The translations under genes and the position numbers were made by a program. A DNA stretch of 31,107 nucleotides from a virus (taxonomy: Duplodnaviria; Heunggongvirae; Uroviricota; Caudoviricetes), in the IMG/VR virus record IMGVR_UViG_2693429768_000006; one strand, given 5' to 3'. The notes under the pieces are model-generated. The model was not told the origin of the DNA. It saw only the letters and a program-made list of their open reading frames with translations, and ran no database searches. Shown here in pieces: positions 286 to 31,107 of the stretch; the first letter of the stretch is position 1, and every line of letters begins with the position of its first letter.

Positions 286-555
286 TTACTCCCTGACAGG
301 ATTTGCAGGCCACTCAATATCAGGTGCAGTTGATGTATCAACACGATTCAACAATACCCGATATTTATTCCATGCCTCCAGCAACGATCTTTCTTCCTCC
401 GTTGCGATTTCCAGATCTACAGCATCCTGCAGTGGCGCAATATACTCACTGAATTCCTGGATGTAGAACTGTGTGGTGACGGTCTTCCAGCCATTCGGCT
501 CCTGCTGTATCGAAGCATACCAGGCTATTTCAATATCGCTATGCTGCGGCAGCAT
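286..555 (-). CDS. tfa: tail fibre assembly protein, C-terminal domain only (Tfa-like, 89 aa, probably a remnant)
   Basis: Translation ends ...[37 protein letters not shown], the conserved C-terminus of lambda/Mu-type tail fibre assembly proteins; about half the length of the intact tfa genes at 2771..3298 and 3329..3862. Confidence 0.55.
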
Positions 556-611: not shown

Positions 612-1280
612 ATGGTGAAATCAATGAAAAAAAACACAGATGATGGGGCTAAAATTTACACACCACTTACCCTAAAGCTTTATGACTGGTGGGTTTTGGG
701 AGTATCAAATCGGCTTGCATGGGGATGTCCTACAAAGGAACACCTTCTTCCACACTTTCTGGAACATGTAGGTAACAACCATCTGGATATTGGTGTTGGA
801 ACTGGGTTTTACCTTACTCACGTACCTGAGAGTAGTCTGATATCTTTAATGGATTTGAACGAAGCTAGCCTGAACGCGGCATCTACAAGGGCTGGGGAAT
901 CAAAAATTAAACATAAAATTAGCCATGATGTTTTTGAACCTTATCCCGCGGCGTTACATGGTCAATTTGATTCCATTTCCATGTTTTACCTTCTTCACTG
1001 CCTGCCTGGAAATATATCTACAAAAAGCTGTGTAATACGCAATGCGGCGCAGGCCTTAACTGACGATGGAACTCTATACGGAGCCACAATTCTTGGCGAT
1101 GGAGTTGTGCACAATAGCTTCGGTCAAAAACTGATGCGCATTTACAATCAGAAAGGCATCTTTTCAAACACAAAAGATTCCGAAGAAGGCTTAACACATA
1201 TACTCTCAGAGCATTTCGAGAATGTTAAAACCAAGGTTCAAGGTACTGTAGTAATGTTTTCCGCTTCAGGGAAAAAATAG
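612..1280 (+). CDS. class I SAM-dependent methyltransferase (moron; substrate unknown)
   Basis: 222-aa ORF with a Rossmann motif I, LDIGVGTGF, followed by an acidic residue (SLMDLNE). No DPPY/NPPY DNA-methyltransferase motif. Markedly AT-rich versus flanking phage genes. Alternative start at ATG 624 (MKKNTDD) has a better SD-like GGTGA. Confidence 0.75.
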   Translation: MVKSMKKNTDDGAKIYTPLTLKLYDWWVLGVSNRLAWGCPTKEHLLPHFLEHVGNNHLDIGVGTGFYLTHVPESSLISLMDLNEASLNAASTRAGESKIKHKISHDVFEPYPAALHGQFDSISMFYLLHCLPGNISTKSCVIRNAAQALTDDGTLYGATILGDGVVHNSFGQKLMRIYNQKGIFSNTKDSEEGLTHILSEHFENVKTKVQGTVVMFSASGKK

Positions 1281-1320: not shown

Positions 1321-1478
1321 CATAATCCCAATGATTACTCCCTGACAGGGTTCGTAGGCCACTCAATATCAGGTGCAGTTGATGTATCAACACGGTTCAG
1401 CAACACCCGATACTTTTTCCAGGCTTCCACCACCAGCACGACAAGATGCCGCATACAGTGAACCAGTCAGTCCAGTTT

Positions 1479-1685
1479 TCAGACAACCAGTGCGTCACCT
1501 TTTTGAAGGCGCTTTAAAGCACGTTTTAATCCAGGTCGGCCTGTCCTTGTTCCGCTTAATTTATCTTCAAATATTTGTTCATATCCTGCACAAACAAGAG
1601 CGTTTCGTTGCAGATCTGTATTCTGGTCATTTGTTGATACCCTTACATAGCCAATCAGCACGCTGAATCTCCCGTCCAAAAGCAC
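1479..1685 (-). pseudogene. pin: serine DNA invertase (Pin/Gin/Hin/Cin family) 5' fragment, truncated by nonsense codons and fused to a tfa 3' remnant
   Basis: Translation ...VLIGYVRVSTNDQNTDLQRNALVCAGYEQIFEDKLSGTRTGRPGLKRALKRLQKGDALVV* matches the invertase N-terminus including the catalytic Ser region, then stops where Pin continues VWKLDRLGR. Downstream sequence switches to tfa 3' coding ([30 protein letters not shown]). Confidence 0.8.
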
Positions 1686-1715: not shown

Positions 1716-1741
1716 TTATCTAAAACCTCGGTTTACAGGAA
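1716..1741. other. gix/pix-like 26-bp invertase crossover site (site L)
   Basis: TTATCTAAAACC-TC-GGTTTACAGGAA; two 12-bp half-sites around a 2-bp core, close to the Gin gix site as recalled from memory. Inverted relative to sites M and R. Confidence 0.7.
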
Positions 1742-1786
1742 ACGGTAAACAAGGCTGGTAACGCCGTTCAGCGTTCCGGCGATAAA

Positions 1787-2755
1787 ATGACCGGAGAACT
1801 GAAAATTGGCACGGTGAATGCGCTGCGAATTTTCAATGATGCCTTCGGTCTTATTTTCCGTCGTTCAGAAGATTTTCTTCATTTCATTCCGACGGCTGAA
1901 GGACAAGGCGAAAACGGTGATATAGGCCCATTAAGGCCATTCGCTATAAATCTGAGAACAGGTGCTATATCTGTCAGCCACGGGGCCAAAATTGATGGTG
2001 GGCTGGCGCTTGGTACAGATAACGCACTGGGCGGTAATTCCATTACTCTCGGAGATAACGACACTGGTATTAAACAGGGCGGCGACGGTGTCCTTTTATT
2101 CTATTCAAATGGACAACTGGCATTTGGACTTCAACCCGCATCTGCTGATTTTTATAAGCGGGTTGCATATATTCATCAGGGAATAATTCCTGATGGAAGT
2201 GGCGCATTTGCAGACCAGTTGAATAATGCCACCGCGCCTTTTGTTCAGACGCAGTTTGCCTGGAATCCCACTCCTGGTGGTCATTACGTGCCGATAGTTA
2301 AGGGCTTGTCCATTCGCAATGGACAGGGCTATCCCGGCGCGGTCAGCTTTGGGTATTTACTGACAGAACAGTATGGATTTCCGGTTCCATGTATTCATAT
2401 GCGTGGCGATGGCGGTAATGATGCTTTATGGCAGTTTAACCCGAACGATAAATCCTTTATTTCACCGGGTGCTCTTATTGCGGGTGGCGTCCGTTATAAC
2501 ACCGATGGAAATATATTTGGTGGGTGCTGGGGTTCAAACTTAAATGATTACCTGAATAGTTCTTTTATCAGAAATGTGCGTCTGGGAGGCAGACGTTCTG
2601 ACACATTATATCGCGGAGGACTTTGCGAACCAGGTAATGGTCATGTGACAACAGGATTGCAAATTATTGGTGAGGTTGATGGAGATGACTGGATGGTGTC
2701 ACGACCACTACAAAAATACATTTCTGGTAACTGGTATAACGTTGAACAGGCATAG
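1787..2755 (+). CDS. alternative side-tail-fibre C-terminal (variable) segment Sv', promoterless; frame is open from 1724
   Basis: Shares the GGNSI(T/V)LGDNDTG(I/F)KQ(G/N)GDG motif and C-terminal QKYIxGxWYNV with the other variable segment. The frame is open upstream to a TAA at 1721-1723 inside site L and reads L-G-L-Q-E across the crossover core. Confidence 0.7.
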   Translation: MTGELKIGTVNALRIFNDAFGLIFRRSEDFLHFIPTAEGQGENGDIGPLRPFAINLRTGAISVSHGAKIDGGLALGTDNALGGNSITLGDNDTGIKQGGDGVLLFYSNGQLAFGLQPASADFYKRVAYIHQGIIPDGSGAFADQLNNATAPFVQTQFAWNPTPGGHYVPIVKGLSIRNGQGYPGAVSFGYLLTEQYGFPVPCIHMRGDGGNDALWQFNPNDKSFISPGALIAGGVRYNTDGNIFGGCWGSNLNDYLNSSFIRNVRLGGRRSDTLYRGGLCEPGNGHVTTGLQIIGEVDGDDWMVSRPLQKYISGNWYNVEQA

Positions 2756-2770
2756 CCATCAGGAGAATAT

Positions 2771-3298
2771 ATGCAACATCTGAAAAATATTACCGCCGGA
2801 AACCCCAAAACCATTGAGCAGTATCAGCTTACGAAAAAAGCTGGCGTTATCTGGCTATATACAGAAGACGGTAAAAACTGGTATGACGAATTAAAAAACT
2901 TTCAGGATGATACTTTAAAAATAGCTTATGACCAGAAGGGGATTATTCGTTGTATTGAGAAAGACGTATCAACACTTAACCCTGACGGGTTAAGTGTTGT
3001 TGAGTTACCGAATATAACAGCCAACCGTCGCGCCGATATCTCGGGAAACTGGAAGTTTCTGGATGGTAAAGTAGTAAAGCGGGAATATACAAAACAGGAA
3101 CTGCAACAGCAGGCAGAGTTACAAAAAGCCGCTTTGCTTTCCGAAGCGGAGTCTGTGATTCAACCGCTGGAACGTGCTGTCAGACTGAATATGGCAACTG
3201 ATGAGGAACGCACACGACTGGAATCATGGGAACGCTACAGCGTTATGGTCAGCCGTGTGGATACTGCAAAGCCTGAATGGCCACAGAAACCAGAATAA
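2771..3298 (+). CDS. tfa: tail fibre assembly protein (cognate to Sv')
   Basis: 175-aa ORF with the Tfa N-terminus (MQHLKNI..., GVIWLY) and conserved C-terminus ([26 protein letters not shown]). Confidence 0.85.
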
Positions 3299-3304
3299 CA
3301 ACAA

Positions 3305-3329
3305 ATTAAGGCCCGTACGGGCCTTTTCT
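3305..3329. terminator. bidirectional hairpin between the convergent tfa genes
   Basis: AGGCCCGTACGGGCCT palindrome with T-rich sequence on both sides. Confidence 0.45.
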
Positions 3330-3862
3330 TATTCTGGTGGTTCCGGGAATGTTACAGGAAGAACCGAGGTATCAGTTGTCTCAACCTGTTGCACGTATCG
3401 CATCCAGTTCATCAGTTGCTGTCTGTCTGAATCAGTGATAATCCCCAAAGTAAGCTGTGTTTGCCAGAACTGCGTTTTTTCTCTGGCCTGCTGTAATAAT
3501 ATTTTTTTCTGGTTTTCCGTCTGTAGGCGCAACTCTTCTTCGGTATATACACGTTTAATGACTGCGCCATCTTTAAACATCCATTTACCTGAGTCGTCAG
3601 CACGCCGGTTGGCGGTAATATCAGGAATCTCAACGACGCTATAACCTTCAGGGTTAAGTGTGGAGGCATCTTTGGTTATGGCAACAATAATATTATTTTC
3701 ATCGTAAACAATCTTTATGGTGTCTGGCTGAAAGTTTTTCACTTCCTCATACCAGTTTTTTTCGTCCTCAGAGTAAAGCCAGATAACTCCGTGTTTCTTT
3801 GTTAACTCATACTGTTCCAGTGTTTTAGCATTACCCGCTTTTATGTTCTTTAAGTGCATCAT
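3329..3862 (-). CDS. tfa: tail fibre assembly protein (cognate to Sv)
   Basis: 177-aa [17 protein letters not shown]...GVIWLY..., same family as 2771..3298 but a divergent C-terminal half. Confidence 0.85.
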
Positions 3863-3863
3863 A

Positions 3864-4649
3864 TTAAACGCTCGCTACATTATACCAGGTGCCATTTATA
3901 TACTTTTGAACGGGTCTGTAATAAACGCCCGCTATATTATCGGCAGAGTTAGACCCTGTATCCTGAACATTAATACCAGACAATACATGACCTGAAGGGC
4001 ACCGGAAATACCATGTTTGCCAGTTGTTCACTCCATAATATTGCTGTGAACCAAGTCGAACATCTTTCACATAACGGGAATCAAAGTTACCGTAATCCGA
4101 GGGGTTAACACGCCCTGTAATATTTATGGTTTTATTACTTTGAATGCTTCCGGAGACAAAGCGCATAACATGGACGTTATTAGCATAAACATCCAGATTA
4201 CCATCGCCATTTTGTTTAAAGCCCGTGTCATTATCACCCAATACAATCGAATTACCGCCAAGAGCACTGGATGTTCCGATACCCAGTGTACCATTCAGTT
4301 GACCACCAGATAACGGCAGTGCACCAACATCTCCTGCTGAAGGTTTTCTGGTGGTGGTGTAAAATTCGGACCAGTCGGCTTCAAAACCATAACCATCACG
4401 GGCTGAACGATAAAAAACACCGCCATTTTTATAATTAATCCGAAACTGAGCTGCAGGACAACTTCCTTCTCCCATATAAAAATGAATAATTAACGTTGAT
4501 GCACCACTAATAGTTGCGTTATAGGCTCCGCTACTCCAGTTCCATCCAACTGCTTTATCATTCGCAACGGTGCTTCCTGTTTTCCCTAAGGCAAACGCAC
4601 CAACATGACTTGCTTTTAATGTGATATCGGAGGAACCATCAAAAGCCAC
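3864..4649 (-). CDS. side-tail-fibre C-terminal (variable) segment Sv, complete copy; frame is open up to 4814
   Basis: Identical to stf residues about 646-827 and then continues about 88 aa further ([14 protein letters not shown]...YNVASV). The frame is open upstream to an in-frame TAA within site M. Confidence 0.7.
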
Positions 4650-4813
4650 ATTGCTTATTTTCCTGGCAGTTTTTAATTTTGCAGCTGTAGAAGCATTGCC
4701 GGATAGTTCACCAGAAAGGCCACCGCTGAATGTTTGTCGATTAGTCCAGGTATTCGCTGTACTGAGTAACGGTATTTTCTCCCCGCTTGTGCCGAGTTCT
4801 CGTAAACCGAGGT
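4198..4813. repeat. direct repeat copy A (about 615 bp), identical to 5645..6259
   Basis: Aligned by eye at both ends and internally; diverges from copy B just right of the crossover core. Confidence 0.85.
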
Positions 4814-4822
4814 TTTAGATAA
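4797..4822. other. gix/pix-like crossover site (site M)
   Basis: TTCTCGTAAACC-GA-GGTTTTAGATAA; same orientation as site R, inverted relative to site L. The distal half carries the in-frame TAA. Confidence 0.7.
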
Positions 4823-4852
4823 TGGCGGTTTCTGGCCTGTATGGCATGATTT

Positions 4853-5059
4853 GTGCTTTTGGACGGGAGATTCAGCGTGCTGATTGGCTATGTAAGGGTA
4901 TCAACAAATGACCAGAATACAGATCTGCAACGAAACGCTCTTGTTTGTGCAGGATATGAACAAATATTTGAAGATAAATTAAGCGGAACAAGGACAGGCC
5001 GACCTGGATTAAAACGTGCTTTAAAGCGCCTTCAAAAAGGTGACGCACTGGTTGTCTGA
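4853..5059 (+). pseudogene. pin: serine DNA invertase 5' fragment (second copy, identical); likely GTG start at 4877 with a GGGAGA Shine-Dalgarno
   Basis: Identical 68-codon frame to 1479..1685; followed at about 5111..5203 by the tfa 3' remnant and at 5218..5250 by hairpin copy 3. Confidence 0.8.
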
Positions 5060-5261
5060 AAACTGGACTGACTGGTTCACTGTATGCGGCATCTTGTCGT
5101 GCTGGTGGTGGAAGCCTGGAAAAAGTATCGGGTGTTGCTGAACCGTGTTGATACATCAACTGCACCTGATATTGAGTGGCCTACGAACCCTGTCAGGGAG
5201 TAATCATTGGGATTATGCCGCAGCACGTCTTAAGCAAGAACGTGCTGCGGTTGGATGCTAT

Positions 5262-5643
5262 TTTTTCCCTGAAGCGGAAAACATTACTACAGTACCTTGA
5301 ACCTTGGTTTTAACATTCTCGAAATGCTCTGAGAGTATATGTGTTAAGCCTTCTTCGGAATCTTTTGTGTTTGAAAAGATGCCTTTCTGATTGTAAATGC
5401 GCATCAGTTTTTGACCGAAGCTATTGTGCACAACTCCATCGCCAAGAATTGTGGCTCCGTATAGAGTTCCATCGTCAGTTAAGGCCTGCGCCGCATTGCG
5501 TATTACACAGCTTTTTGTAGATATATTTCCAGGCAGGCAGTGAAGAAGGTAAAACATGGAAATGGAATCAAATTGACCATGTAACGCCGCGGGATAAGGT
5601 TCAAAAACATCATGGCTAATTTTATGTTTAATTTTTGATTCCC
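5262..5643 (-). pseudogene. methyltransferase 3' fragment (residues ~96-222), inverted duplicate of 895..1280
   Basis: Translation ESKIKHKISHDVFEPYPAALHGQ...SASGKK is identical to the C-terminal part of the 612..1280 product. The ORF-track N-terminal extension (5644..5740) is stf DNA read out of frame. Confidence 0.8.
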
Positions 5644-8135
5644 ATACCATCGCCATTTTGTTTAAAGCCCGTGTCATTATCACCCAATACAATCGAATTA
5701 CCGCCAAGAGCACTGGATGTTCCGATACCCAGTGTACCATTCAGTTGACCACCAGATAACGGCAGTGCACCAACATCTCCTGCTGAAGGTTTTCTGGTGG
5801 TGGTGTAAAATTCGGACCAGTCGGCTTCAAAACCATAACCATCACGGGCTGAACGATAAAAAACACCGCCATTTTTATAATTAATCCGAAACTGAGCTGC
5901 AGGACAACTTCCTTCTCCCATATAAAAATGAATAATTAACGTTGATGCACCACTAATAGTTGCGTTATAGGCTCCGCTACTCCAGTTCCATCCAACTGCT
6001 TTATCATTCGCAACGGTGCTTCCTGTTTTCCCTAAGGCAAACGCACCAACATGACTTGCTTTTAATGTGATATCGGAGGAACCATCAAAAGCCACATTGC
6101 TTATTTTCCTGGCAGTTTTTAATTTTGCAGCTGTAGAAGCATTGCCGGATAGTTCACCAGAAAGGCCACCGCTGAATGTTTGTCGATTAGTCCAGGTATT
6201 CGCTGTACTGAGTAACGGTATTTTCTCCCCGCTTGTGCCGAGTTCTCGTAAACCGAGGTATTCGATAACGGCGGCAACGGTCGATTTCGCAAGAATATCC
6301 CGCCCAACTTTTGTCAGGGTTGCCAGACTGGCAACATCATTCCCCGTAAAATACGGAAACCTGTCTGCCGCAGTAGCAAGCCCGGCCAGCGCCGTCAGGG
6401 TGGCATCTTTCGGTTGCTTACCCGCAAGCGCGTTAGTCATGGTGGTCGCAAAATTCGGGTCGTTGCCCAACGCCGCAGCCAGCTCGTTCAGCGTATTCAG
6501 TGCGTCAGGCGACGAGTCCACGAGGGCAGCGATCGCAGCCATAACATAAGCCGTGCTTGCGATTTGGGTATTATTCGTTCCCTGTCGCGCAGTTGGTGTT
6601 GTTGGCGTTCCGGTCAGTGCAGGACTATTTAAGGGCGCTTTCTTGTTCGTTTCACCCATTACCGCCTTAACCGCTTTTGGCGTTGCCGCCAGTGACTCGG
6701 AAGTGCTGTTGGTCGCACTGCTGAGCTGTACTATCCCCTTTTTCGTCGTGCTCGCATCCTCCAGCGCCACGGCGGATGCAATATCCTCTGCCCGTTTTGC
6801 TGCTGTCTCGGCGCGCGTTGCCGCGGATTCCGCCGTACTTTTGCTCTGAGCTGCCGCCGTCACACTACCAGCTGCCTCTGATGCTTTCATTGTTGCTGTC
6901 GTGGCACTACCTTTCGCTGCTGACGCTTGTCTGGTCGCCTCATCTTTTGAAGCAGACGCAGATGATGCCGATGACGCCGCTGAACTGGCTGACGATGCGG
7001 CTGCCGCCTTAGAGGAAGCAGCATTGTCTGCTGAAGTCTTTGCATTTGTTTCAGAGGTTTTTGCTGCAGAAGCAGACCTCGCTGCTGCAGTGGCTTGCTC
7101 AGTGGCTTTGCCAGCCTTCGTTGTGGCTGTTGAAGCGGATGATGCGGCGCTTTCTGCCGATTTTCCGGCGGCGGTGGCACTGGCTGAGGCCTGCCCGGCA
7201 CTTGTTGACGCGGCACTGGCAGACGACGCAGCCGCTGTTTTTGAGCCTGCCGCAGCCGAGGCGCTCTGTCCCGCTGCCGTTTCAGAAGACCTGGCGTTTG
7301 TCTCAGACGTCTTTGCCGCCTTCGCGGAATTGCCTGCCGCCGTTGCCGAGGAAGCGGCACTACTGGCGCTTGATGATGCGTTCGTTTCTGATGATTTCGC
7401 TGCCTCTTTTGAGGCCGCCGCACCCCGTGCCGAGGTGGCAGCTTCTGACGCCTTCGTGGTCGCTGTGGATGCAGAAGTGGCTGCCGATTTTTGTGATGCT
7501 GCGGCATTCGTTTCTGACGTTTTCGCGGCACTGGCGCTGGTAGCTGCCGCGCTTTTTGATGACTCTGCAGCAGCAGCACTTTTTGCTGCTTCACGGGCCT
7601 TTGTCGATGCCGTTCCTGCGCTGGAAGACGCTGACTGAGCCGACGACGCGGCCTGTCCGGCTGACGTGCTGGCGGCACGTGCTGAGGCTGCAGCATCGGT
7701 TGCATGAGTTGCCGCCTCGCTGGCTGATGCACTGGCATCGCTGGCTGATTTTTTCGCGGCTGCCGTATTCTGTGCAACCGCGGAGGCGTTACGTGACACC
7801 TCTTCCACCATCTGCTCAAAGCGGCGCAGTGCCTCCGGTCGGACATCATCCTCCGTCATGGCACCGAGAAAATCATTCAGCGTACCTGGTCTGGAACCTT
7901 CATAGACGGTAATGGTCCCGGCATGTGAAGGCGGAAAACCTTCAACCAGCAGGGTGACGCTGTACTGACCATGCTCAACATCCATGCTGTAACGTCCGGC
8001 TTCATCCGGATTTTCAGAGGCCACCGTGTTCACCACCACCGTGCTGCTGGTTCGTCTGGCCTTCAGCACAATGGTGCAGTTCTGTACTGGTTTTCCTGTG
8101 CCATCTTTAAGCACGCCAGAAATTTTTACTGTCAT
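5628..8135 (-). CDS. stf: side tail fibre protein Stf (lambda Stf homologue), C-terminally truncated in this configuration
   Basis: N-terminus MTVKISGVLKDGTGKPVQNCTIVLKARR... matches lambda Stf, with a long Ala/Ser/Thr-rich central region. The ORF ends ...[15 protein letters not shown] where it joins methyltransferase-derived DNA at about 5644. Confidence 0.85.
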   Translation of the reverse strand: MTVKISGVLKDGTGKPVQNCTIVLKARRTSSTVVVNTVASENPDEAGRYSMDVEHGQYSVTLLVEGFPPSHAGTITVYEGSRPGTLNDFLGAMTEDDVRPEALRRFEQMVEEVSRNASAVAQNTAAAKKSASDASASASEAATHATDAAASARAASTSAGQAASSAQSASSSAGTASTKAREAAKSAAAAESSKSAAATSASAAKTSETNAAASQKSAATSASTATTKASEAATSARGAAASKEAAKSSETNASSSASSAASSATAAGNSAKAAKTSETNARSSETAAGQSASAAAGSKTAAASSASAASTSAGQASASATAAGKSAESAASSASTATTKAGKATEQATAAARSASAAKTSETNAKTSADNAASSKAAAASSASSAASSASSASASKDEATRQASAAKGSATTATMKASEAAGSVTAAAQSKSTAESAATRAETAAKRAEDIASAVALEDASTTKKGIVQLSSATNSTSESLAATPKAVKAVMGETNKKAPLNSPALTGTPTTPTARQGTNNTQIASTAYVMAAIAALVDSSPDALNTLNELAAALGNDPNFATTMTNALAGKQPKDATLTALAGLATAADRFPYFTGNDVASLATLTKVGRDILAKSTVAAVIEYLGLRELGTSGEKIPLLSTANTWTNRQTFSGGLSGELSGNASTAAKLKTARKISNVAFDGSSDITLKASHVGAFALGKTGSTVANDKAVGWNWSSGAYNATISGASTLIIHFYMGEGSCPAAQFRINYKNGGVFYRSARDGYGFEADWSEFYTTTRKPSAGDVGALPLSGGQLNGTLGIGTSSALGGNSIVLGDNDTGFKQNGDGMGIKN
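5645..6259. repeat. direct repeat copy B (within stf)
   Basis: Identical to 4198..4813. Confidence 0.85.
6243..6268. other. gix/pix-like crossover site inside stf (site R)
   Basis: TTCTCGTAAACC-GA-GGTATTCGATAA; the constant-side half encodes V-I-E-Y of Stf and the core encodes L-G. Confidence 0.65.
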
Positions 8136-8286: not shown

Positions 8287-8886
8287 TCAGAAACGGTATC
8301 CGATACCAACAATAAATGCATCCGTTCGCCAGTCGCCACTACCGGAACCTTCATAAGCAAGGTCAATGGTCACGGATTCGGTCGGGTTAAACTGCACGCC
8401 AGCCCCCCACGCCAGAGACGTGTTGCTGTGGCGACCGTCATCACTTCCGGTCAGCACATCGTGCGTTTTCCCCTTGTTGTCAGTTACGCGGAGATAATCC
8501 CCGGAGAAAGTCGACACACGGCTGTAAGCCACACCCGCCATCGCATACGCGCTGAACCATTCATTCACGCGCACAGACGGCCCCGCCATCACGCTGAACC
8601 AGCGGTTACGCACGGAATCTTCATGCCAGCGGGTATCGCTGTAATGCGTTTTTTGCTCATCTTTGGCATTGGCATAACTGAATGACGTCACCAGCCCCAG
8701 CGTGTCCGTAAACTCATAACGGTATTTCACGTTAATCCCGTTCAGATCATCACTACCGGGAACGTTCGTCGAGGCATGGAGATACCCCGCGCTCAGCGTG
8801 GACTGATGTTCTGCTGCACTCGCTGGCGTAGCAGCGGCGACCTGCCAGACTACTGCGGACAAAATAACAGCACATAATTTACGCAT
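8287..8886 (-). CDS. lom: Lom-like outer membrane protein (Ail/Lom/PagC family), moron
   Basis: 199-aa ORF with a signal peptide and C-terminal ...GIGYRF; same position as lambda lom between J and stf. Confidence 0.85.
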   Translation of the reverse strand: MRKLCAVILSAVVWQVAAATPASAAEHQSTLSAGYLHASTNVPGSDDLNGINVKYRYEFTDTLGLVTSFSYANAKDEQKTHYSDTRWHEDSVRNRWFSVMAGPSVRVNEWFSAYAMAGVAYSRVSTFSGDYLRVTDNKGKTHDVLTGSDDGRHSNTSLAWGAGVQFNPTESVTIDLAYEGSGSGDWRTDAFIVGIGYRF

Positions 8887-30851: not shown

Positions 30852-31107
30852 TCTGATAACTCATGCAGGCATCTCAGACGACCCACTGACACTACCGGTG
30901 AGTTTAACGATACCTTCCATTTGACTGGCTCACTTTTTATGATGATGCTGGTGCATTTATCTCCAGCACCAGACTTTCTATCTCAACGCCATACGCTGCA
31001 TTTTTGGTAATATCCGTCAGCGTCAGCGCATTCAGCCCCAGTGTCAGACTGTCTTTTATGACCTGGAATGCCGGGCCAGCCACTCCATTCAGTTTCGGAG
31101 TAACCGT

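Follow-up and report, generated by a model that had tools for sequence, protein, structure and literature searches.

Does the tail-fibre locus of this prophage carry a switch with three crossover sites, or is it a known two-site switch to which something has been added? An earlier note, made from the sequence alone, had read it as a Gin/Pin-type invertible switch with the layout of the Mu G segment, three gix-like sites and two alternative fibre C-termini. The window (the whole stretch of DNA analyzed, 31,107 bases) holds a lambdoid prophage beside ompW/yciE/trpA. This locus has been described before, as the Mu-type invertible tail-fibre cassette of prophage Phi4 in E. coli O25b:H4-ST131 strain EC958. 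That we are dealing with a switch of this known type, and that its middle site is a by-product of an extra block of DNA, is almost certain. The three 26-bp gix-type sites are as follows.

1716-1741, minus strand: site L, gix at the Sv'/pin junction (G(+) type), TTATCTAAAACCTCGGTTTACAGGAA, core at 1728-1729; matches Mu_3F6
4797-4822, plus strand: site M, hybrid by half-site composition, Sv/pin junction of the G(-) state, TTCTCGTAAACCGAGGTTTTAGATAA
6243-6268, plus strand: site R, gix/cix-type at the stf/Sv junction (G(+) type), TTCTCGTAAACCGAGGTATTCGATAA, core GA at 6255-6256

A scan of the 31,107 bases with a degenerate consensus (three mismatches or fewer) matched L, M and R only, where the earlier note had placed them. 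The same scan of 100 dinucleotide-preserving shuffles gave no match, a chance expectation of 0 versus 3 found. Each site pairs two 12-bp half-sites, imperfect inverted repeats of one another, across a 2-bp core, as in known gix/cix sites. The core reads GA in M and R and TC in L, hence L is inverted with respect to both, as had been claimed; the sites that would recombine are thus inverted and share an identical core dinucleotide. L is identical to the gin-proximal gix of phage Mu_3F6 (26/26) and nearly so to its second gix (25/26), while R differs from the curated P1 cixR, TTCTCTTAAACCAAGGTATTGGATAA, at 3 of 26 positions. The resemblance to gix/hix/cix/pix sites that the earlier note had proposed therefore withstood both alignment to curated sites and comparison with shuffled sequence.

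Around these sites lie the following genes and elements.

612-1280, plus strand: class I SAM-dependent methyltransferase gene (Pfam Methyltransf_12/23/25; annotation of MLI121 and EC958)
1430-1661, minus strand: gin/pin remnant copy 1, fused to a tfa 3' end (Pfam Resolvase; alignment to Mu gin and P1 cin)
1730-2755, plus strand: Sv', alternative variable C-terminal fibre segment (frame across site L)
2771-3298, plus strand: tfa', assembly chaperone for Sv' (Pfam Caudo_TAP, E=9e-35)
3308-3325, no strand: bidirectional terminator-like hairpin between the convergent tfa genes (from sequence)
3329-3862, minus strand: tfa, assembly chaperone for Sv (Pfam Caudo_TAP, E=6e-32)
3864-4808, minus strand: Sv, variable fibre C-terminus in its complete form, 314 codons counted from the core (frame; Pfam gp37_C match)
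6256-8135, minus strand: stf constant part, ~629 codons, ending ...VIEYLGL at the crossover core (ORF 5628-8135; Pfam phage_tail_N, E=4e-70)

This is a fibre switch by layout: a constant 5' gene outside the segment and two in-frame 3' ends inside, each with a chaperone gene. The two Caudo_TAP matches and the hairpin bear out the earlier claim that each C-terminus is followed by its own tfa and that the tfa pair converges on a hairpin. Site R lies in stf and translates as ...VIEYLGLRE..., again as described. Across their own sites, both variable frames read I-I-stop-N-L-G-L (for Sv, ...II-stop-NLGLRELGTSGEK...), which agrees with the report of stops in the distal half-site and L-G-L across the core. 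A modelled RxL inversion produced the predicted in-frame fusion of the stf constant part to Sv', a 968-aa Stf-Sv' (...IEYLGLQETVNKAGN...). A modelled RxM deletion gave a 941-aa Stf-Sv, equal in length to the Stf of MLI121, and a modelled MxL inversion left stf unchanged. The first 629 residues of Stf are common to the Sv and Sv' isoforms; Sv' and Sv themselves show only patchy similarity. Both segments delimited in the earlier note are indeed variable, but the starts given for them (1787 and 4649) are internal ATG/GTG codons, and the true extents are those listed above. In the window, stf is broken at 5644/5645 and encodes 835 aa ending in a junk tail (...NGDG-MGIKN). The present state of the window thus encodes no complete fibre.

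The same element is found elsewhere. An ompW remnant and trpA flank it in EC958, MLI121 and EC24, and the canonical G(-) form that we modelled aligns with EC958 Phi4 along 7,065 bp, collinear and gap-free, at 99.3% identity. The EC958 crossover sites were found at their published coordinates (Table 3, PMC4134206), and the reverse complement of M is the published EC958 Phi4_3prime site. Sites, chromosomal position (ompW remnant/trpA side), truncated invertase and gene order (stf-gix-Sv'/Sv-tfa-tfa'-gix-truncated recombinase-tfa remnant-methyltransferase) are all shared. Forde 2014 (PLoS One 9:e104400; PMC4134206) described these sites in EC958 Phi4 together with a truncated invertase; the PacBio reads of that study showed both orientations and assembled into both alleles. 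Junction counts among complete E. coli genomes were 330 for stf/Sv, 243 for stf/Sv' and 377 for Sv/pin'. Orientation even differs between similarly named strains with neighbouring accession numbers (4/0 versus 4/1-1 and 4/4). The WS3294A record contains both orientations, in untrimmed overlapping ends where the locus was mis-closed. Both orientations therefore occur in nature, in complete genomes, the WS3294A assembly and the EC958 PacBio data, all from strains other than the window's own. With its sites, chaperones, in-frame fusions and both orientations in hundreds of genomes, the Gin/Pin-type switch of Mu G-segment layout holds. Its three-site architecture does not: a search of related prophages for the canonical arrangement found two-site loci in EC958, JJ1886 and MLI121, and M lies on a block unique to the window. 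In every complete genome checked, EC958 included, stf is intact and there are two sites, whereas the window has an extra block, a third site and a broken stf.

What would drive the switch? Of the cassette's own invertase, only a dead 60-codon remnant is left, present in two identical copies (copy 2 at 4877-5161). In copy 1, ~60 intact codons, including the catalytic-Ser motif, are followed by a TGG-to-TGA stop, decay and the tfa fusion; the Pfam Resolvase match covers only profile positions 2-69 of 145, and homology to the cassette-less EC24 stops at 1429. The same truncation was reported for EC958 Phi4 (PMC4134206). Searches of the window with Pfam and by tblastn with Mu Gin found remnants only and no functional serine invertase, that is, no catalytic domain joined to a C-terminal helix-turn-helix. 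Since the cassette's own enzyme is dead, flipping would need an invertase supplied in trans, presumably by another prophage, as also proposed in the literature: Forde et al. suggested that the Phi1 invertase acts on Phi4 (PMC4134206). The e14 P segment is inverted by an enzyme of another prophage, PinQ from Qin (PMC12529663). A gin/pinE-like 3' half is present in 3,000 of 5,426 E. coli genomes. Both remnants also keep a putative Fis-dependent enhancer (1572-1643 in copy 1, 4895-4966 in copy 2), so named from alignment to the annotated P1 cin enhancer and from identity to Mu at 70 of 72 positions.

The constant 5' part of stf stays outside the segment; within the segment, Sv and Sv' lie head to head, and each has its own tfa after it. 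We propose that a Gin/Cin/Pin-group serine invertase cuts two inverted 26-bp sites at their 2-bp GA core and flips the ~3.1-kb segment, leaving stf to end in Sv (941 aa) or in Sv' (968 aa). The dead remnant may still contribute its enhancer-homologous 5' stretch, with the enzyme coming from another prophage in trans.

The third site belongs to an extra block, whose parts are as follows.

4823-6268 (equivalently 4199-5644), no strand: extra 1,446-bp block, removal of which restores the canonical two-site locus
4823-5643, plus strand: second, inverted pin-side flank, with remnants of gin/pin and of the tfa 3' end, and with the last 386 bp of the methyltransferase gene (inverted repeat; tblastn with Mu Gin)
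5644, no strand: novel junction base A, templated by neither Sv nor methyltransferase sequence (sequence comparison)
5645-6242, minus strand: second copy of the first ~600 bp of Sv, continuous with the stf constant part and truncated at the junction (direct repeat)

The block breaks stf and creates two repeats. An 847-nt inverted repeat (895-1741 and 4797-5643; 845/847 identical) has L and M at its inner ends, and a direct repeat of about 615-624 nt (4199-4822 and 5645-6268; 622/624 identical) ends in M and R. The 3' 386 bp of the methyltransferase gene (895-1280) fall within the duplicated sequence. Without 4823-6268, the window matches MLI121 at 6,749 of 6,754 positions. In-silico RxL inversion turns the locus into a perfect tandem duplication, 895-2340 and 2341-3786 (1,445/1,446). 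The Sv-side half of M is as in R and its pin-side half as in L. On this half-site composition, M is the recombinant Sv/pin junction of the opposite orientation, carried on the extra block, and not a design feature; the window therefore holds junctions of both orientations at once. The 5644/5645 junction itself has no microhomology and one untemplated base. Base 5644 can also be read differently, with the methyltransferase-derived part reaching T893 and a one-base undercall of a G4 run. Among 5,426 complete E. coli genomes, none matched a junction-spanning query as one contiguous stretch. Nor did the junction 31-mer occur in any of three collections of contigs (viral, genome and metagenome), or the junction proteins in a protein-position index.

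Where did the block come from? An artefact is the most likely origin, with a real tandem duplication followed by RxL inversion as a close rival. On balance, we favor a known Phi4-type switch whose block arose in the assembly of a mixed-orientation culture: the block would be an end-joining or overlap artefact of assembling a culture with both orientations, and the real locus an ordinary two-site switch. The junction, with its untemplated base and lack of microhomology, sits in an otherwise indel-free consensus. The block is centered on a gix site and mixes both orientation states, as would be expected from contig tips of G(+) and G(-) reads. The same locus is visibly mis-closed in WS3294A, and Forde et al. 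caution against just this kind of error, 'artefactual duplications in phage regions' (PMC4134206). Against an artefact, both copies are error-free, and the overhangs extend 615 nt into Sv and 821 nt into the pin side. Such lengths exceed those of short-read graph tips but fall below typical long-read overlaps, so an artefact would have required a special course of events: a minority orientation and a naive end join, then rotation. The structure is also biologically coherent, being the exact outcome of one duplication and one legitimate RxL inversion. If the block is real, a 1,446-bp tandem duplication reaching from the 5' part of Sv through gix and the pin remnant into the 3' part of the methyltransferase gene would have arisen in a G(-) cell, and an invertase acting in trans would then have inverted the DNA between the site next to stf and the distal copy of the duplicated site. 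We regard this history as possible, though somewhat doubtful. It accounts for the perfect head-to-tail duplication and intact 968-aa Stf-Sv' recovered by RxL inversion in silico, and the half-sites of R, M and L are made up exactly as the two steps predict. The consensus elsewhere is clean (0 indels over 22.9 kb versus EC24), and an Sv/methyltransferase junction cannot be invented by a graph-based assembler. Yet the block is a singleton across the genomes, contig collections and protein index searched, and this locus has a known assembly failure. A random 1.4-kb duplication must also straddle gix by coincidence and be followed by the less obvious, outer inversion. Junctions without microhomology, as here with a single untemplated base, are unusual for RecA-independent duplications in E. 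coli.

Two further readings bear on the switch itself. It is very unlikely that the locus is a self-contained three-site Pin switch with its own invertase, designed for multiple sites in the manner of p15B Min or a shufflon. Three good sites with an identical GA core, L inverted to M and R, would suit it, but the window has no intact invertase and the canonical relatives carry two sites. Moreover, M delimits no third coding end, MxL inversion leaves stf as it is, and M lies in a duplicated block with 100% identical flanks. We consider it extremely improbable that the orientation polymorphism stems from general (RecA) recombination or independent acquisitions instead of a serine invertase. The dead cognate invertase would fit; however, the sole inverted homology of the canonical locus is the 26-36-bp site (Table 3, PMC4134206), the crossover in the hybrid sites falls precisely on the 2-bp core, and both states coexist in single cultures. 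Trans-acting invertases are also common, and their action in trans was shown experimentally (PMC12529663).

Beyond Phi4, a close relative is the Mu G segment with Gin (also D108 and SfMu). The layout, S-gix-Sv-U-U'-Sv'-gix-gin, is alike, L is a Mu gix at all 26 positions with core GA, the remnant and its site share 92-94% DNA identity with the gin end of Mu-family phages, and the (here putative) enhancer lies inside the 5' end of the invertase gene. Unlike in Mu, gin is truncated after ~60 codons and fused to a tfa fragment, and the cassette sits in a lambda-like siphovirus prophage (phage_tail_N Stf, Lom, J), whereas Mu-like phages are myoviruses. The P1 C segment with Cin and the e14 P segment with Pin (PinE) likewise have 26-bp sites of the cix/pix type (R departs from P1 cixR at 3 positions) and a constant fibre part with alternative C-termini, each with its own chaperones; P1 also has the same peptide motif, ...LGLRELGTSGEK..., across the site. 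In contrast to the GA core of the window, that of P1 cix is AA (TT in cixL). The 3' end of P1 cin abuts cixL, and both P1 and e14 keep functional invertases (e14: PMC12529663), whereas the window has a dead remnant. Min of plasmid p15B and the R64 shufflon resemble the window in that a single fibre or pilus-tip locus contains more than two crossover sites. In Min and the shufflon, several distinct coding segments permute (PMC9881135). Here the third site comes from duplicated existing sequence and adds only a truncated C-terminus. Multiple inversion implies at least three sites, several coding segments and more than two functional C-termini; the only extra product in the window is a truncated Stf.

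If the block is real, the locus would have three sites and three reachable stf states. Besides the broken Sv of the window, RxL inversion would yield full Sv', and another inversion, or loss of the block, would yield full Sv. Homologous recombination could then delete the block by way of the 615-bp direct repeat or, with no invertase involved, flip the G segment by way of the 847-bp inverted repeat.

Each of the three 26-bp gix-type sites (L, M and R) consists of 12-bp half-sites flanking a 2-bp core:

1716–1741, site L, TTATCTAAAACCTCGGTTTACAGGAA
4797–4822, site M, TTCTCGTAAACCGAGGTTTTAGATAA
6243–6268, site R, TTCTCGTAAACCGAGGTATTCGATAA

These coordinates, proposed in an earlier note made from the sequence alone, were correct on inspection. 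That L is inverted relative to M and R, as the note also held, is borne out by the core dinucleotides, which are TC in L and GA in M and R. A degenerate-consensus scan of all 31,107 bases (≤3 mismatches) returned L, M and R and no further sites, and under the same consensus and threshold 100 dinucleotide-preserving shuffles gave 0 sites. We compared the sites with actual phage records (Mu_3F6, P1). L is identical to the gin-proximal gix of Mu_3F6 (26/26) and matches the other gix at 25/26 positions, while R differs from the curated cixR of P1 at three. The sites thus beat shuffled sequence and match known invertase sites, as the note had anticipated. M is a hybrid, with its Sv-side half as in R and its pin-side half as in L (Sv and Sv′ being the alternative 3′ fibre parts, and the pin side the flank with the invertase remnant). 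This is the product expected of exchange at the core between the stf–Sv site and the Sv′–pin site, and M is accordingly the junction formed by Sv and the pin side in the opposite orientation, G(–).

Across R, the side-tail-fibre gene stf reads ...VIEYLGLRE..., and both variable frames read I-I-stop-N-L-G-L across their own sites. A modelled R×L inversion yields a 968-aa Stf with the Sv′ end (...IEYLGLQETVNKAGN...), which is the in-frame stf–Sv′ fusion foreseen in the note; a modelled M×L inversion leaves stf unchanged. As written, the stf ORF runs through R into a duplicated Sv part and stops five codons past a novel junction at 5644/5645, giving a product of 835 aa that ends ...NGDG-MGIKN. 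Similarity between Sv and Sv′ is limited to short patches. The genes that follow them, taken by the note to be two tfa (fibre chaperone) genes convergent on a shared hairpin, both encode Caudo_TAP assembly proteins, and their point of convergence is a bidirectional hairpin at 3308–3325. In its constant part (window about 6700–7800, minus strand), Stf has a ~370-residue low-complexity stretch rich in Ala, Ser, Thr and Lys; weak ~33-nt periodic repeats are seen there, and the long ORFs to which the stretch gives rise in other frames, or on the other strand, are spurious.

The sites lie within two long repeats, one of which takes in part of a methyltransferase gene:

895–1741 and 4797–5643, inverted repeat, 845/847 identical
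4199–4822 and 5645–6268, direct repeat, 622/624 identical
612–1280, class I SAM-dependent methyltransferase gene

In each repeat, both differences fall within the site. Besides a site, the inverted repeat carries an invertase remnant, the 3′ fragment of a tfa gene and the final 386 bp of the methyltransferase gene; the direct repeat corresponds to ~600 bp from the start of Sv. When the extra block (4823–6268, 1,446 bp) was removed in silico, a two-site locus encoding a 941-aa Stf–Sv was restored, and this matched E. coli MLI121 at 6,749 of 6,754 positions without a gap. In-silico R×L inversion of the window gave a perfect head-to-tail duplication (895–2340/2341–3786; 1,445/1,446), located downstream of an intact Stf–Sv′. 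These results indicate that the window represents the canonical locus plus a 1,446-bp site-spanning duplication, viewed after inversion between the outer sites. The canonical two-site arrangement, which the note had suggested looking for in relatives, is present in MLI121 and in prophage Phi4 of strain EC958. Three sites as the architecture of the system, as the note had it, did not survive, since M lies within the duplicated block and the canonical locus has two. A designed three-site (Min-like) system was rejected as well, as M adds no new coding end.

The switch is already known, this being the same locus as EC958 Phi4, described in 2014. Forde et al. reported three invertible prophage tail-fibre segments in this ST131 strain (PMC4134206). 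For Phi4, they described a segment of 3,106 bp, a first crossover site (TTATCGAATACCTCGGTTTACAGGAA) and a second (TTATCTAAAACCTCGGTTTACGAGAA), a PacBio contig in the alternative orientation, and a ‘severely truncated’ invertase gene, and they suggested that the invertase of Phi1 acts on Phi4 in trans (PMC4134206). M, when reverse-complemented, equals the second of these sites, and the first is an stf–Sv′ hybrid junction that does not occur in the window. In its modelled G(–) form, the window is collinear with EC958 over 7,065 bp at 99.3% identity, with the sites at the published coordinates. Among 5,426 complete E. coli genomes, counting matches to at least 80% of the query, the stf–Sv junction was found in 330, stf–Sv′ in 243 and Sv–pin′ in 377. 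Similarly named strains with neighbouring accession numbers carry different forms: stf–Sv in 4/0, and stf–Sv′ in 4/1-1 and 4/4. In the canonical locus, inverted homology comprises only the site (~26–36 bp) and exchange falls precisely on the core, which is consistent with a serine invertase, not with general recombination; RecA-driven inversion of the canonical locus was rejected on these grounds.

At this prophage, the ends of the RefSeq record of strain WS3294A overlap and were left untrimmed:

NZ_CP035819.1, 4988435–4996164 and 1–20000, overlapping ends of the circular record

The overlap, ~16 kb from a tail gene to the methyltransferase gene, is present at both ends, and the segment lies one way round at the start and the other way round at the end. 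The overlap looks like an error of assembly in a public ‘complete’ record, and it is direct evidence that both orientations coexisted in that culture. In many complete E. coli records, the prophage lies within 3–30 kb of the record start (matches at positions 2939, 4608, 5504, 7991, 19626, 21890 and 22052, for example, the last common to several unrelated records), which suggests that the records were rotated by a shared rule or that assemblies often break near it.

Each copy of the invertase remnant has ~60 codons that can be aligned to Mu Gin, including the catalytic-serine motif VRVSTNDQ. Past this point, a TGG codon is changed to TGA, and the decaying frame leads into tfa C-terminal codons. 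The Pfam Resolvase match covers only positions 2–69 of the 145-position domain, and tblastn of the window with Gin revealed no invertase other than the remnants. The invertase is dead in both copies and, with the cognate gene dead, the enzyme would have to come from elsewhere. A gin/pinE-like 3′ half occurs in 3,000 of the 5,426 complete E. coli genomes, and trans action between cryptic prophages has been seen experimentally, PinQ of Qin inverting the P segment of e14 (PMC12529663). Both remnant copies keep 72 nt homologous to the annotated cin enhancer of P1 (70/72 versus Mu), which may serve as an enhancer at this locus. Functionally, the locus is one of the Gin/Cin/Pin-type tail-fibre switches and departs from them in one respect, the lack of a functional invertase of its own, which has been published for Phi4 of EC958 too. 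The earlier reading of a Gin/Pin-type switch was right about the kind of system but did not notice that the invertase is dead and stf broken.

The element adjoins an ompW remnant, yciE/F/G and trpA. Elsewhere, the window has the late genes usual for a lambda-like phage, beginning with Lom and J, continuing with tail, head and terminase genes and finishing with lysis genes. A gene between stf and J (8287–8886, minus strand) encodes an Ail/Lom outer-membrane protein, and beside the lysis cassette is a gene for a SASA-family carbohydrate esterase (30937–31107, minus strand) that the window end cuts; both are typical lambdoid cargo. For the window outside the cassette, the closest relative is strain EC24, with 14 substitutions and 0 indels in 22.9 kb:

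NZ_CM169477.1, 2574000–2587500, EC24 prophage region, 99.9% identical, same ompW site

Ten of the 14 substitutions cluster within ~130 bp of lom (8572–8703), a pattern more suggestive of a short recombined patch than of scattered mutations. At the fibre locus of EC24, stf (1,025 aa) is non-invertible, and tfa, here full-length at 194 aa, directly abuts the methyltransferase gene. Homology between the window and EC24 stops at 1429 (boundary 1429/1430), exactly where the gin remnant starts, and the remnant with its site shows 92–94% DNA identity to the gin/gix ends of Mu-family phages. From these features, the invertible cassette appears to have come from a Mu-like source by mosaic replacement; a gin already truncated and joined to the 3′ end of the resident tfa would have arrived with it or have been created by it. 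Direct repeats of ~150 bp (236–383 and 1286–1432, about 90% identical), made up of tfa 3′ ends and downstream sequence, flank the methyltransferase gene, and a second tfa C-terminal remnant is found at 286–555 (minus strand). The methyltransferase gene appears to be a moron whose insertion duplicated the tfa end.

A 301-bp query spanning the novel junction was contiguous in 0 of 5,426 complete E. coli genomes. The exact junction 31-mer was absent from viral, species-representative genome and metagenome contigs, and exact-protein look-ups gave no record for the 835-aa broken Stf or for a 160-aa junction ORF. These searches show that the junction is a singleton, a status that fits artefact and rare event alike. 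There is no microhomology at the junction, and one base (A5644) is templated by neither parent. In an alternative parse, methyltransferase sequence continues to T893 and a one-base undercall (CCCC to CCC) falls in a G4 run two bases from the join; this parse is equally parsimonious and is only suggestive. The absence of indels relative to EC24 extends to MLI121 (0 over 6.75 kb), and an indel-free consensus does not discriminate as a clue to sequencing technology.

On balance, we favor an assembly artefact as the source of the extra block. The culture would have contained both orientations, and a chromosome-sized long-read contig would have broken at the switch. One contig tip would be a G(+) read ending 615 nt into Sv, and the other the reverse strand of a G(–) read starting 821 nt out on the pin side. 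Joining of these untrimmed ends, with later rotation of the record, would produce a block centred on the crossover site, a mixture of the two states and a blunt join. Such an error has a precedent at the same locus in WS3294A, and an explicit warning in the literature supports the scenario (PMC4134206). A close rival, somewhat less probable, is that the block is real: a tandem duplication would have arisen while the segment was in the G(–) state, and the outer sites would then have recombined to invert what lay between them. This route is mechanistically legitimate and reproduces the window sequence exactly, but it needs a random 1.4-kb duplication that happened to straddle a site, as well as an atypical junction. 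Were the block real, this strain would carry a Phi4 switch modified to have three sites and, beside Sv and Sv′, an OFF state in which the fibre is truncated; we consider this reading less likely than not.

Textbooks have covered invertible tail-fibre segments since the days of Mu, P1 and e14; as a switch, this locus adds nothing new, and the remaining interest is whether the duplication is real. The case calls for caution, in that invertible prophage segments in mixed-orientation cultures are error spots in ‘complete’ assemblies, with WS3294A in RefSeq a second example of misassembly at this locus. Such errors can produce spurious duplications, additional recombination sites that do not exist and false pseudogenes; in the present case, stf would be annotated as seemingly truncated. 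If the block is real, the 847-bp perfect inverted repeat would permit RecA to flip the G segment without an invertase, and the 615-bp direct repeat would permit loss of the block. The window would then have caught a natural intermediate, one that shows how multi-site systems of the Min or shufflon type can originate when a crossover site is duplicated. It would be a small, neat case of a third crossover site gained by duplication, in an orphan cassette still rearranged by the invertases of other prophages.
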